This document shows positions 2,830-52,185 of a DNA stretch of 64,000 nucleotides, piece by piece. The notes below the pieces were generated by a model. It did no database searches. It was not told the origin of the DNA and was given only the letters and a program-made list of their open reading frames with translations. Source of the DNA: an uncultured Candidatus Saccharibacteria bacterium (lineage in GTDB: Bacteria > Patescibacteriota > UBA1384 > CAYGGE01). Each line of letters starts with the position of its first letter. The stretch's first letter is position 1. The DNA lies in the NCBI GenBank assembly GCA_964349485.1, contig CAYGGE010000005.1, forward strand, positions 3,483-67,482. The letters are read 5' to 3'. Made by a program: the position numbers and the translations under genes.

Positions 2830-3624
2830 CTAACTCGCGGGCTGTTTTTTAGCGGCATCGACGACATTGGAGAGTAGGAAAGCCACAGTCAACGGGCCAA
2901 CGCCACCCTTTTGAGGTGTGATATAGCCCACTTTCTCGAGAACCTGTTCATAGAGTACATCTTTATCGACGTCGATTACGACAGCCCCATCTTTGATCAT
3001 GCTCGGCTGTATTAGGTGCTCTTGTCCGGTACCACTGACTAGAATATCGGCGTTGATGGTACAGGCACCAAGATCACCAGTTGATTCGTCGCATACGGTA
3101 ACGTCTAAATTTCGTTCCTTAAGTCGCTTGATTAATGGTCCACCAACTAGGCGTCCTTTGCCCACAATGACAATCTTTTTTTCTTCTAGGTCGATGTCAT
3201 AACTATGGAGAATCTCAGTGATGGCCGAGACCGTCGGTGGCGTGAAGTCGCTATCCGTTCTCAATCCGTCGACGTCTTTTTCCTTTAAGACTGCTTGCAG
3301 AACTTTGTCGGTATCGATTTGGTCTGGAAGTGGTAACTGAACAATGATTCCACTGACTGAAGGCTCTGCATTCAACTGCTCAATCGCCTCAATAATTGAC
3401 TCTTGGCTAACGGTTGCATCTAGTTTGTGAAGTGAGAATTCGATCCCTAGTTCACTCGCTTGTTTGCCCTTGATATTCACATAGGTCACACTGTTGGGAT
3501 CTTCGCCAACTAAAACTACGGCAAGAGTCGGGGTAATATCGTCAGCCTTAAGACTAGCGATCTCCTCAGTAAGGAGTTCATAAAGTTTGGCCACAATAGT
3601 TTGGCTGGTCATGATTATTGGCAT
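2830..3624 (-). CDS. folD: bifunctional methylene-THF dehydrogenase / methenyl-THF cyclohydrolase
   Basis: LAVVLVGEDPNSVTYVNIKGK motif and GKGRLVGGPL NAD(P)-binding motif. Confidence 0.9.
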   Translation of the reverse strand: MPIIMTSQTIVAKLYELLTEEIASLKADDITPTLAVVLVGEDPNSVTYVNIKGKQASELGIEFSLHKLDATVSQESIIEAIEQLNAEPSVSGIIVQLPLPDQIDTDKVLQAVLKEKDVDGLRTDSDFTPPTVSAITEILHSYDIDLEEKKIVIVGKGRLVGGPLIKRLKERNLDVTVCDESTGDLGACTINADILVSGTGQEHLIQPSMIKDGAVVIDVDKDVLYEQVLEKVGYITPQKGGVGPLTVAFLLSNVVDAAKKQPAS

Positions 3625-43932: not shown

Positions 43933-44317
43933 GGGGCTGTATTGGCTTCGACGGGTAGATCCTGAAGAAGAAATGGGCGAGCCGCGTTGTTCACGTACGA
44001 ACAAAAATCCTAAGTGCAAACTTAGTAGGCCGTGTTAAATCTGCCGTAGCGCAAGCTTTCGGTAGCCTAACATTGGCTCCTGTATACGCTTAAATTCGTA
44101 TACCGTCAGCTTAGTCATGCCTATTGGCTAAGTCCTGGCGCAATAAAATAGGCTGCACTTACCTAGAGTATCGCTGTCGGTAACTAAGCTTACTGCGGTT
44201 GCCATTGTTGTTTCTTGTTTGTTCTAAGCAACAATCAAGCCTTTGAGCAGACTACGCTCGTAGTCCATTTCCCTATTCACTATTCGGACAGGGGTTCGAC
44301 TCCCCTCAGCTCCACCA
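43933..44317 (+). ncRNA. ssrA: transfer-messenger RNA (tmRNA, SsrA)
   Basis: 5' GGGGCTGTATTGGCTTCGACGGG and 3' tRNA-like end GGACAGGGGTTCGACTCCCCTCAGCTCCACCA. Internal candidate tag frame at 44016..44093 would encode (A)NLVGRVKSAVAQAFGSLTLAPVYA*. Confidence 0.85.
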
Positions 44318-48694: not shown

Positions 48695-49849
48695 GTGAAG
48701 ATTGGGATATTTACTGAGACATATGAACCAACCATCAATGGGGTTGTTGTTTCAATCAATACGTTTAAGAAAGAACTTGAGCGACAGGGTCACGAGTACT
48801 ACATTTTCTGTCCTTTCAACAAACATGCCAAAAGCGATCCGCCAAATGTATTTCGGTTTCCAGCAATTCATTTCCGCAACGATTTACTCTATCCTTTGGC
48901 TATTCCCATGCCGTTTGCATGGGTTAAGCAACAACTACCAATCGACATCATCAAGACTCTAGACATCATCCATGTTCAACATTTCGCCTTAATGGGTCAA
49001 TATGGCCTTAGACTGGCCAAAGCATACAATATTCCAAGTCTATATACATATCACACCATGGCAGAGCTTTATGTCGTCAATGCTCCCTGGATCGCACCTC
49101 TGGCCGAGCCAGCAATAAGGGCTTTGACTCGCTATACGGCACGACAGGCCAAGCACGTAATTACTCCCACTCAGTCAGTTAAGGACTATTTGCACACGAT
49201 TGGTATTCATAGGCCGATATCGGTGGTTCCGACAGGTATCGATGTAAATCAATACGGTCGGACGAATGGCCGGAGTCTACGCAACAAATATCGCATTCCG
49301 CATGACCATAAATTACTTCTTTACGTAGGTCGATTAGCGGCGGAAAAAAACGTACCATTTTTGTTGCAGGCGTTTAAGCAGGCTTTGCGCTTTGAACCTA
49401 AAACACATCTTATCTTAGTTGGCGGTGGGCCTGACAAGAGTCAGTTTGAGACGTGGGTAAAACAGAATAGACTTAAGAATGTCATTTTCACTGGCTTTGT
49501 AGCACATTCTGAGGTAAAAGAGCATTTTGGTTTGGCCGATATCTTTGTTTTTCCCTCGGTGAGTGATACTCAAGGTATTGTCATCCTTGAAGCCATGGCG
49601 GCCGGAGCAGTTCCAGTGGCGATCGATAGACTTGGTCCCCACGATCTCATCGACAATGGTCACAGTGGAGTCCTAATTGACTTGAATCTTGATGCTTTTT
49701 CTGGTACAATTATCGATCTATTACGTAATGATCGTAAAAGATTAGCTATGGCGAGAAATGCAGAGCGCCACGCCAATCGATATGACTATAAAGTAACAGC
49801 TAGACAGATGGAAGAAGTCTATCGTGAGTTAATTAAAAACGATGATTGA
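48695..49849 (+). CDS. glycosyltransferase family 4 (MGDG-synthase-like / GT-B)
   Basis: KIGIFTETYEPTINGV N-terminus and C-terminal E-x7-E region (ILEAMAAGAVPVA). GTG start at 48695 follows a GGGAGAGG RBS. Confidence 0.75.
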   Translation: MKIGIFTETYEPTINGVVVSINTFKKELERQGHEYYIFCPFNKHAKSDPPNVFRFPAIHFRNDLLYPLAIPMPFAWVKQQLPIDIIKTLDIIHVQHFALMGQYGLRLAKAYNIPSLYTYHTMAELYVVNAPWIAPLAEPAIRALTRYTARQAKHVITPTQSVKDYLHTIGIHRPISVVPTGIDVNQYGRTNGRSLRNKYRIPHDHKLLLYVGRLAAEKNVPFLLQAFKQALRFEPKTHLILVGGGPDKSQFETWVKQNRLKNVIFTGFVAHSEVKEHFGLADIFVFPSVSDTQGIVILEAMAAGAVPVAIDRLGPHDLIDNGHSGVLIDLNLDAFSGTIIDLLRNDRKRLAMARNAERHANRYDYKVTARQMEEVYRELIKNDD

Positions 49850-51218
49850 TAAGTCAACCAATACCAAGGTAGCCCTTGTTCCGGCACCCTCACTGCGTCA
49901 AAAAGCGAAGAAGGTGACCGTTTTTGATAATGCACTTAAGACAACGGCTGATACGATGCTTGAAACCATGCGATCGTATAAAGGTATGGGCTTGGCTGCA
50001 CCCCAGATTGATCAGTCAAAACAGCTGCTGGTGATTGAATATGTTCCCGAGGAGAAAGGTGAACAACCAATTCCGACGACTATCCTAGTTAATCCCAGTA
50101 TCACTGATTCCAGTAAGTCAACGGACTGGATGGACGAGGGCTGTTTGTCGATTCCTGGTGTTGAGTTACCTGTTAAGCGCTCAACTGCGATTAATGTCTT
50201 AGCACAAGATATATCTGGTAAGAGAATCAAGATTCGGGCCAAACAATTGTTTGCCCGCATTCTCCAACATGAGATAGATCATCTGAACGGGACATTGATC
50301 ACCGATCGAGCCTATCCAAACCTCGAACAGTTAGCTGGTAGCAGAATTATCTTCTTTGGTACACCGAATCATGCTACCTACTATCTGACTGCTCTCGCTG
50401 CAACCAAGGCAGAGATCGTTGCAGTAGTCACTGAAACCGACAAACCTGCCGGAAGAAATCAACAACTCACACCGCCTCCGGTGAAGGTTCATGCTGAACT
50501 AATGGGTCTACCCGTACTCCAATTCGAATCCCTGAAAACGAAAGAAGCCCAGCAAGCGATCGATAATCTGAAGGCTGATCTAGCTGTCGTTGTTGCTTAT
50601 GGTCAAATCATTCCCCAAACAGTTTTGGACATGCCCAAGCATGGCTTCTTGAATATTCATTATTCTTTACTCCCATCATACCGTGGCGCTACACCTCATC
50701 AATCGGCAATTCTAGCCGGAGAGAAAATCGCAGGTTACAGTATCTTCAAGCTAGATAGTGGCCTAGATACAGGTCCAATCCTCTCTCAAGGGAGCCTACC
50801 TATCGAGCCCGGCGATACCAGTCACACGTTGTTACAAAAACTTGTTCCGCCTTCCATTTGTACTCTTTTGGAAATGTTACCCGAGTATTTTTCAGGTAAG
50901 AAACAGTTAAAAGTGCAGGATGATAGTCAAGCAACCAATACCAAAGTTTTTACCAAAGAGGATGGCCGAATTGACTGGACGGATGAACCTACCGTTATAG
51001 ATCGTCAGATTCGGGCTTACTTCCCGTGGCCAGGAACATTTACAGAGATCAACGGTCAGCGTTTGTTGATTCATGCGGCTCATATCATTGATGACCGATT
51101 AGTAATCGATGTCGTTCAACCAGCCGGTAAACAGTCAATGAGCTTAGGTAGTTACCTACGTGGCAACCCTGCCGGGTTGACTTTCTTCTCGAGTATTGAT
51201 AGAGTAAAGCTTAACTAA
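49842..51218 (+). CDS. def-fmt: peptide deformylase - methionyl-tRNA formyltransferase fusion protein
   Basis: Def motifs GMGLAAPQ, EGCLS and QHEIDHLNG at residues 1-170, then Fmt RIIFFGTPNH...HYSLLPSYRG from residue ~185, in one continuous frame. Overlaps the upstream GT4 stop. Confidence 0.8.
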   Translation: MIDKSTNTKVALVPAPSLRQKAKKVTVFDNALKTTADTMLETMRSYKGMGLAAPQIDQSKQLLVIEYVPEEKGEQPIPTTILVNPSITDSSKSTDWMDEGCLSIPGVELPVKRSTAINVLAQDISGKRIKIRAKQLFARILQHEIDHLNGTLITDRAYPNLEQLAGSRIIFFGTPNHATYYLTALAATKAEIVAVVTETDKPAGRNQQLTPPPVKVHAELMGLPVLQFESLKTKEAQQAIDNLKADLAVVVAYGQIIPQTVLDMPKHGFLNIHYSLLPSYRGATPHQSAILAGEKIAGYSIFKLDSGLDTGPILSQGSLPIEPGDTSHTLLQKLVPPSICTLLEMLPEYFSGKKQLKVQDDSQATNTKVFTKEDGRIDWTDEPTVIDRQIRAYFPWPGTFTEINGQRLLIHAAHIIDDRLVIDVVQPAGKQSMSLGSYLRGNPAGLTFFSSIDRVKLN

Positions 51219-51239: not shown

Positions 51240-51707
51240 ATGTTAATGATTCGCTTAACCCGCATGGGTAAAAAGCATCAGCCGACTTATCGGGTGGTGG
51301 TTACGCCAAAACAGAACGCCTCACAAGGTGATTATTTGGAAAAAATTGGACTCTACAATCCACTACGAGAAGTAGTGGAGATCGATATGAAAAAAGCTGT
51401 CGAATGGCTGGATAAAGGTGCTATGCCTTCTGACCGAGTTGCCCGACTATTGACCAAGGCTGGCGTCAAACATAAATCAATTGTAGTTAAACACTACACT
51501 CCAAAGCCAGAAGCAGAGGAAAAAGTTGAGGTCAAGTCGGCAGCAGAGACTCCTGTAGAGGATACTATTGAATCAACAGAAGATGTAACTGAAGAAGTTG
51601 TTGATACTGTCGAGGTTGACGAAGTTCCTGTTGCAGAAGAGTCGATCGAGCAGTCAGCTTCATTAACCGCTGAAGTCGAGACTTCTGCCGAAGAGCCAAC
51701 CGCCTAA
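51240..51707 (+). CDS. rpsP: 30S ribosomal protein S16 with acidic C-terminal extension
   Basis: MLMIRLTRMGKKHQPTYRVVV N-terminus. Confidence 0.9.
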   Translation: MLMIRLTRMGKKHQPTYRVVVTPKQNASQGDYLEKIGLYNPLREVVEIDMKKAVEWLDKGAMPSDRVARLLTKAGVKHKSIVVKHYTPKPEAEEKVEVKSAAETPVEDTIESTEDVTEEVVDTVEVDEVPVAEESIEQSASLTAEVETSAEEPTA

Positions 51708-51807: not shown

Positions 51808-52185
51808 ATGGAAAAGGATCAAGAGTTCGTGGAATATATCGTCAAGTCGATCGTTAACGTACCTGACGAAGTCAAGACAGAGAGGACTGTCGATGAGATG
51901 GGGGTTCTAATCACCCTCGCAGTAAACCCAGAAGATATGGGTAAGATCATCGGTAAAGAGGGGCGAACAGCCAAAGCACTTCGCACACTCTTAAGAGTTA
52001 TGGGCGCTCGTAGCAATGCTCGAATCAACCTGAAAATAATGGAACCAGAAGGTGGTAGACTAGAGCACGCCAGTCATGACGATCATGATGATCACGACGG
52101 TCATGATCATGTTCATAACGATGCTCCGGCCTCAGCTGCAGACCAGCCAGCCGAAGAGACCGAAAACGCAACTGAAATACTATAG
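51808..52185 (+). CDS. KH-domain RNA-binding protein (YlqC/UPF0109-like) with His/Asp-rich tail
   Basis: GKIIGKEGRTAKALRTL KH GXXG loop. Position between rpsP and trmD matches the ylqC operon context. The ATG at 51808 follows a GGAGG RBS. Confidence 0.75.
   Translation: MEKDQEFVEYIVKSIVNVPDEVKTERTVDEMGVLITLAVNPEDMGKIIGKEGRTAKALRTLLRVMGARSNARINLKIMEPEGGRLEHASHDDHDDHDGHDHVHNDAPASAADQPAEETENATEIL

Follow-up and report, generated by a model that had tools for sequence, protein, structure and literature searches.

A single reading frame encodes peptide deformylase and methionyl-tRNA formyltransferase in a Patescibacteria chromosome

The stretch of DNA analyzed here (the window; 64,000 nucleotides, positions 3,483 to 67,482 of contig CAYGGE010000005.1, assembly GCA_964349485.1) comes from an uncultured Candidatus Saccharibacteria bacterium and carries one gene in which peptide deformylase (PDF, here Def) and methionyl-tRNA formyltransferase (Fmt) are joined. 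According to the list of open reading frames (ORFs) and the sequence itself, this gene is a single uninterrupted frame from ATG to TAA, encoding 458 amino acids at exactly 49842-51218 on the forward strand, which confirmed the original prediction of one in-frame Def-Fmt fusion. The motifs quoted in that prediction (GMGLAAPQ, EGCLS, QHEIDHLNG, RIIFFGTPNH and HxSLLPxxRG, the last being HYSLLPSYRG) were all located in the sequence. Across the def-fmt junction, the remaining two forward frames had many stops. When the sequence was read from His147, the last metal ligand of Def, to the first beta strand (beta-1) of Fmt, no in-frame stop, ATG or GTG was found, but a lone in-frame TTG was present at nucleotide 50295 (Leu152), 16 codons ahead of Fmt beta-1. 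The proposal that the linker has neither a stop nor an internal start was thus right for stops, ATG and GTG, and has to be amended for this TTG. The TTG had no well-spaced Shine-Dalgarno sequence and was not conserved in the Berkelbacteria homologue, whose connector contained no start-type codon at all. The linker was indeed short, with a connector of about 9 residues. The GC content of the two halves was 0.456 and 0.454, and no compositional break was seen at the junction.

The N-terminal half matched the deformylase family PF01327 with a score of 160.5 against a cut-off of 22.8. Two NCBIfam deformylase models were also above their cut-offs, namely TIGR00079 (the pept_deformyl equivalog; 145.1 versus 103.95 bits) and NF001159 (155.3 versus 125). 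All three deformylase motifs, defined as G-Φ-G-Φ-A-A-x-Q, EGCxS and QHExDH (PMC12690207), were present (Table 1). In the third, which extends to QHEIDHLNG (residues 142-150, nucleotides 50265-50291), the metal is bound by His143 and His147, and Glu144 serves as catalytic base. The best relatives of solved structure were the type-1B-like deformylases 4dr8, 3cpm and 1rl4. The original prediction had been concerned that the Def portion might lack its metal ligands on closer alignment; Cys101, His143 and His147, as well as the catalytic Glu144 and Gln55, are all present and invariant among the fusions described below.

The C-terminal half, residues 168-458, is a complete Fmt that opens with RIIFFGTPNH (residues 168-177). 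It scored 230.4 bits against the cut-off of 201.5 for the fmt equivalog TIGR00460, whereas the NCBIfam models of the paralogous formyltransferases ArnA, PRK06988, PurN and PurU remained far under their own cut-offs. Its best relative of solved structure was E. coli Fmt (1fmt/2fmt; E = 2.5e-61, query residues 167-418). The segment TETDKPAGRNQQLTPPPVK aligned with residues 34-52 of E. coli Fmt, which form loop 1, so that Gly41-Arg42 correspond to G204-R205. In E. coli Fmt, Arg42 in this loop, together with Gly41, serves to recognize the acceptor end of the initiator tRNA. The catalytic motif (residues 271-282, with HYSLLPSYRG at residues 273-282, nucleotides 50658-50687) contained N271, H273, L277, P278, R281 and G282, all invariant, and the E. 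coli Fmt linker lysines 206 and 209 mapped onto K-V-F-T-K. No gene for an initiator tRNA was found within the window.

Table 1. Coordinates of the fusion gene, its domains and motifs, and the adjacent genes
Feature	Position	Strand	Evidence or remark
Complete def-fmt fusion gene	49842..51218	+	458 codons plus TAA; same DNA in contigs L001-L004
Peptide deformylase domain, residues 9-158, type-1B-like	49866..50315	+	PF01327, 3e-47
Def motif 1, GMGLAAPQ, G48-Q55	49983..50006	+	G50 and Q55 invariant in 95 fusions
Def motif 2, EGCLS, E99-S103, Cys101 metal ligand	50136..50150	+	E99, G100, C101 and S103 invariant
Def motif 3, QHEIDH, Q142-H147	50265..50282	+	H143, E144, D146 and H147 invariant
Connector PNLEQLAGS, residues 159-167	50316..50342	+	Occupies the place of the basic C-terminal ribosome-docking helix of E. 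coli Def
Fmt N-terminal domain (Rossmann-type, binding formyl-tetrahydrofolate), residues 168-334	50343..50843	+	PF00551, 3.7e-41
Fmt loop 1, T197-K215	50430..50486	+	Aligned to 1fmt residues 34-52; G204 and R205 invariant
Fmt catalytic motif, N271-I-H273-YSLLPSYRG282	50652..50687	+	E. coli Asn108 and His110 (1fmt alignment)
Fmt catalytic Asp309	50766..50768	+	E. coli Asp146 (1fmt alignment); invariant
Fmt C-terminal tRNA-binding beta-barrel domain, residues 371-458	50952..51215	+	PF02911, 2.9e-14, match 371-418
GT4 glycosyltransferase gene, upstream	48695..49849	+	TGA overlaps the fusion ATG (ATGATTGA)
rpsP (ribosomal protein S16), downstream	51240..51707	+	21 nt past the fusion stop; GGGAG Shine-Dalgarno

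Next, the conservation of the gene was examined. The 1377-nt gene was base-for-base identical, with the same neighbors, in four contigs (L001-L004) that had been assembled independently (ERR3094294, ERR3094295, ERR3094296 and ERZ27247828). In a search of a collection of 5.8 billion proteins, each of the best 120 matches, from 100% down to 39% identity, had the architecture PF01327+PF00551+PF02911, and nearly all were about 450 aa long (range, 414 to 501). After alignment of 95 fusions, the invariant columns were in essence the catalytic residues of the two enzymes: G50, Q55, E99-G100-C101, S103, H143-E144, D146 and H147 in Def, and G173, G204-R205, N271, H273, L277-P278, R281-G282 and D309 in Fmt. 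Such a pattern is the signature of purifying selection, which, judged from these alignments, would act on both activities. The connector, by comparison, was conserved in length and variable in sequence. From His147 to Gly173 of Fmt there are 26 residues in the window protein and 25 to 29 in the main class of fusions.

The structure of the protein was predicted by AlphaFold2 (AF2) with the alignment of the 95 fusions as input. The mean predicted local distance difference test score (pLDDT) was 96.6 and the predicted template modeling score (pTM) was 0.93, with disorder at residues 1 to 6 only. The pLDDT was above 95 throughout the Def domain. The connector was ordered in the model, with short helices at residues 153-157 and 159-164 followed by beta-1 at 168-173, all with a pLDDT above 90. 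Since a pTM of 0.93 is high for a three-domain chain, the model implies that Def and Fmt pack as one compact rigid unit. A Foldseek comparison placed the Def fold close to the PDF structures 1rqc (P. falciparum PDF) and 3oca, with a TM-score relative to the target (TMt) of 0.76 to 0.81. The Fmt part matched 2fmt_A, the E. coli Fmt-tRNA complex, with a TMt of 0.86 and a root mean square deviation of 1.4 Å over 303 columns. No chain spanning both Def and Fmt was found by Foldseek in the PDB, where the best TM-score relative to the query (TMq) was 0.59.

The named homologues of the fusion belonged to Candidatus Saccharimonadales, Candidatus Berkelbacteria and the "Patescibacteria group". The named relatives of the GyrA protein encoded in the window (at most 65% identity) were likewise from Berkelbacteria and Patescibacteria. 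Both sets of relatives put the window within Patescibacteria, close to Berkelbacteria. In an exhaustive HMMER search against 1.84 billion representatives of clusters at 50% identity, Def+Fmt fusions accounted for about 52 of the 150 best clusters. The Def-Fmt architecture is common among Patescibacteria, whose genomes are tiny, and the norm for the closest relatives of the window gene. The database search that the original prediction called for did recover fusions in related genomes, Berkelbacteria and Saccharimonadales included. Its description of the fusion as unusual was overstated, given that all 120 best relatives and about 52 of 150 clusters are fused and that a fusion has been published for Exiguobacterium (PMC12690207). 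Two orthologues, P0046 from Berkelbacteria (CP066697.1) and P0035 from Saccharimonadales, matched the window protein in their three domains, connector length and synteny, were about 450 aa long and showed 42 to 45% identity to it. They are diverged in sequence from the window protein, whose own subclade has members 54 to 79% identical to it. In public annotation, the Patescibacteria fusions are called "methionyl-tRNA formyltransferase" only, with the Pfam architecture precomputed.

Fusions were also found outside this main class. In P0146, P0162, P0165 and P0178 (L089, 3001-4557), which come from other, apparently high-GC, organisms, the connectors were 36 to 74 aa long, of low complexity, with a high content of Pro, Gly, Ala and Glu. 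The P0178 fusion directly follows priA. Judging from their sequences, these four probably represent independent fusion events. In a rough neighbor-joining tree of the Fmt domains, built without support values, the fusions fell in several separate blocks. This hint, together with connectors ranging from 5 to 74 aa, suggests that fusion occurred independently several times overall. Split genes were found as well. In one close relative (L090, 1037-2400), def and fmt are separate and overlap by TAATG; in another (L091, 1144-3005), the order is def, a small reverse ORF, fmt and then rpsP; and in a Saccharibacteria metagenome-assembled genome (MAG; L056, 1018-2346), def ends in TGA and is split from fmt. 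Fused and split states coexist among the relatives, and fusion or fission at the def-fmt boundary is evidently easy.

The genomes returned by a tblastn scan with the fusion protein were nearly all from outside the candidate phyla radiation (CPR), that is, Patescibacteria. Among them were 63 with separate but adjacent def and fmt genes, 17 with fmt and no adjacent def, and no new fusion. All 63 adjacent non-CPR pairs shared a reading frame, and in many of them the def stop codon was the sole separator. That every pair shares a frame is probably a bias of tblastn ranking rather than biology. Nevertheless, from such same-frame pairs it can be seen that the loss of a single stop codon could create a fusion. 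As a separate observation, two Fmt-like proteins, P0144 (457 aa) and P0168 (368 aa), had the Fmt N-terminal region matched twice in tandem, which points either to duplication of part of the protein or to an error of assembly.

The fusion gene lies among ordinary chromosomal genes; clpB, recG, gyrB, gyrA, atpA, atpD, thrS and a transfer-messenger RNA (tmRNA) gene are also found in the window. The fusion start codon lacks a Shine-Dalgarno sequence, in contrast to rpsP downstream, which has GGGAG. The overlap of the stop codon of the upstream family 4 glycosyltransferase (GT4) gene with the fusion start codon (ATGATTGA), together with this lack, suggests from the sequence that the fusion is translationally coupled to the GT4 gene within an operon. 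The order priA, a variable ORF, def-fmt, rpsP, and further on a KH-domain gene and trmD, was kept in the complete 768-kb Berkelbacteria genome CP066697.1 and also in Saccharimonadales MAGs. The slot between priA and def-fmt holds the GT4 gene in the window, is empty in Berkelbacteria and holds an unrelated ORF of 214 aa in Saccharimonadales.

Several neighbors had features of their own. The PriA homologue (46785/46824-48638, forward strand; about 604 to 617 aa) has PriA_3primeBD and a weak PriA_C as its recorded domains and no DEAD, ResIII or Helicase_C match on record, in which it differs from the 815-aa PriA encoded beside P0178 (L089). Possibly the helicase core has diverged or been reduced. 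Ribosomal protein S16 in the window is 155 aa long; after a core of roughly 80 aa it continues for about 70 aa in a strongly acidic C-terminal extension with many E, D, T and V residues, and S16 of the Berkelbacteria and Saccharimonadales relatives is likewise 143 to 148 aa long. The KH-domain protein (KhpA/B-like; approximately 51811-52185, forward strand) has a His/Asp-rich tail, HASHDDHDDHDGHDHVHND, with the appearance of a metal-binding segment. The tag predicted for the tmRNA gene (43933-44317, forward strand; Rfam, 130.7 bits), ANLVGRVKSAVAQAFGSLTLAPVYA, is long and has VYA at its end in place of the usual LAA.

Taken together, these results make it very probable that the gene is a genuine chromosomal gene of Patescibacteria encoding one bifunctional polypeptide with two active enzymes that are predicted to be rigidly packed. 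The original reading, a true Def-Fmt fusion with an intact Def site, was supported by the ORF, the domains and the invariant catalytic residues. The N-terminal part would act as a metal-dependent deformylase that takes the formyl group off nascent chains, and the C-terminal part would formylate Met-tRNAfMet with 10-formyl-tetrahydrofolate. Substrate channeling between them is unlikely because Fmt acts before initiation and Def acts later on the nascent chain, so that the two do not catalyze consecutive steps on one substrate. The likeliest benefit would be obligatory 1:1 coexpression, which in a sparsely regulated genome would rule out the production of Fmt in the absence of Def. E. coli and other bacteria require def only as long as fmt is active, and loss of fmt is one way to actinonin resistance (summarized in PMC12690207). 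Formylation is toxic unless deformylation follows, and only the presence of Fmt makes Def necessary, so a fusion would be beneficial. The gene itself probably arose from a translationally coupled def-fmt operon by a minor mutation where the two genes meet.

Several points weigh against this interpretation. We infer both activities in vivo, for the window protein as for any CPR member, from conserved sequence, and the coexpression rationale is likewise one that we infer. In the Def half, E. coli Def could be aligned no further than its residue 152 of 168, and its long basic C-terminal helix has no counterpart. E. coli PDF uses this helix to dock on ribosomal protein L22 (PMC8712518), a trait of E. 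coli-type PDF that is not strictly defining; the fusion has the 9-residue non-basic connector instead. Without the docking helix, cotranslational deformylation by the fusion may work differently. A short Def tail is not specific to fusions, however, since the standalone 161-aa Def of the close relative L090 is similarly short. In the Fmt half, PF02911 (53.5 bits) was matched at profile positions 3-50 of 100 only, and with 292 aa the Fmt part falls about 20 aa short of the E. coli enzyme, a difference accounted for by the C-terminal domain. The standalone Fmt proteins of relatives are equally short, at 292 to 298 aa. Lastly, no second def or fmt was found by tblastn, a result that holds for the 64-kb window only and not for the whole genome.

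Other explanations of the gene were weighed against the same data. Separate def and fmt genes could have been merged by a sequencing or assembly error that removed a stop codon or introduced an indel. In many other bacteria the two genes share a frame and are separated by one stop codon, and at the TAATG overlap of the close relative L090 one base change could mimic a fusion. However, the gene was identical in four separately assembled contigs, and the 120 best homologues, which come from many studies and include proteins 39 to 79% identical, have one frame and the same connector length. An artifact is effectively refuted, with a negligible chance of being correct, and the hidden stop codon feared in the original prediction was not upheld, as the junction is open in four assemblies and in more than 100 diverged homologues. 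It is also very improbable that the C-terminal half is another formyltransferase, of the sugar (ArnA-like) or PurN-like kind. The Formyl_trans_N/C domains are common to ArnA, FDH and WbkC-type enzymes, which were seen as weaker matches. Against this, the fmt equivalog was the only one over its cut-off (ArnA, 120.9 versus 777; PRK06988, 136.6 versus 316), the top structural match was E. coli Fmt bound to tRNA, the Fmt-specific loop 1 with its Gly-Arg pair is present and invariant, and the gene occupies the classical priA-def-fmt position.

Two further possibilities accept the fused frame and deny that it yields one protein with two functions. One half could be dead, with Def kept only for structure or ribosome binding, or Fmt only for tRNA binding. 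The finding that Exiguobacterium, which has a fusion, retains a second complete PDF would fit such a loss, but it is very improbable here: Cys101, His143, His147, Glu144, Asn271, His273, Asp309, the SLLPxxRG motif and Arg205 are invariant in the 95 fusions, and both halves exceed their equivalog cut-offs. Alternatively, the fused frame could give two proteins by internal initiation, for example at the TTG of Leu152, or by proteolysis of the connector. The position of this codon, in frame and 16 codons before Fmt beta-1, is what could allow it. Initiation at Leu152 was set aside for its poor Shine-Dalgarno spacing and lack of conservation in Berkelbacteria, where the connector has no start-type codon. 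As for proteolysis, the AF2 model predicts a short ordered connector and tight packing rather than an exposed cleavable loop. We consider the production of two proteins very unlikely, and a single bifunctional polypeptide remains the best explanation of the gene.

A broader proposal is that the short-connector fusion is an ancient innovation of all Patescibacteria and their sole source of both activities, with Fmt replacing the docking helix of Def and the whole forming one rigid body. We regard this as tentative and rather doubtful. If it were true, formylation at the start codon and deformylation of the nascent chain would be locked together physically and stoichiometrically. In addition, either Def would act without the canonical docking on L22 or a new contact with the ribosome would come from the Fmt moiety, which binds RNA. 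Independently of this proposal, the annotation of such proteins as Fmt only means that automated surveys can call deformylase missing from CPR genomes or miscount genes. As a natural "Rosetta stone", the fusion confirms how tightly Def depends on Fmt in function, and it suggests a hard-wired Def/Fmt stoichiometry in minimal genomes. A Def half without a ribosome-anchoring helix but with a strictly conserved active site also offers a test case for the dependence of cotranslational deformylation on L22 docking. Our current understanding of the formylation/deformylation pathway is unchanged. The function of a similar fusion has been demonstrated before. What remains new is the short-connector form with its predicted rigid packing seen across the CPR, the absence of the docking helix and a possible role as the sole Def and Fmt.

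The closest known system is the fused def-fmt gene of Exiguobacterium (E. alkaliphilum), a single coding sequence that restores growth of an E. coli Δdef-fmt mutant and is treated as a genuine biological feature (PMC12690207; Mol Biol Evol 2025). In that study, 5,042 reference genomes were surveyed and the fusion was reported in Exiguobacterium only, which also has a second complete PDF; Patescibacteria are mentioned nowhere. As in the window, Def is N-terminal and Fmt C-terminal in one coding sequence, but the organism belongs to Bacillota rather than Patescibacteria. In a literature collection of 8 million papers, we found no description of a Def-Fmt fusion from CPR/Patescibacteria. The Def-Fmt fusion is therefore already known as a kind, and functional in Exiguobacterium, whereas the CPR-wide short-connector form is one for which no published description was found. 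ArnA, a formyltransferase/decarboxylase, resembles the window protein in being a natural fusion with a Formyl_trans_N/C module; its partner domain, substrate and pathway are different, and the window protein scored far under the ArnA cut-off. With the canonical def-fmt operon of E. coli and most bacteria, in which the two genes are often translationally coupled, the window gene shares the enzymes, their order, the position after priA and the catalytic residues. It differs in having no stop and restart between the two enzymes, and in place of the C-terminal helix of E. coli Def, of about 16 residues, it has a 9-residue connector that leads directly into beta-1 of Fmt.

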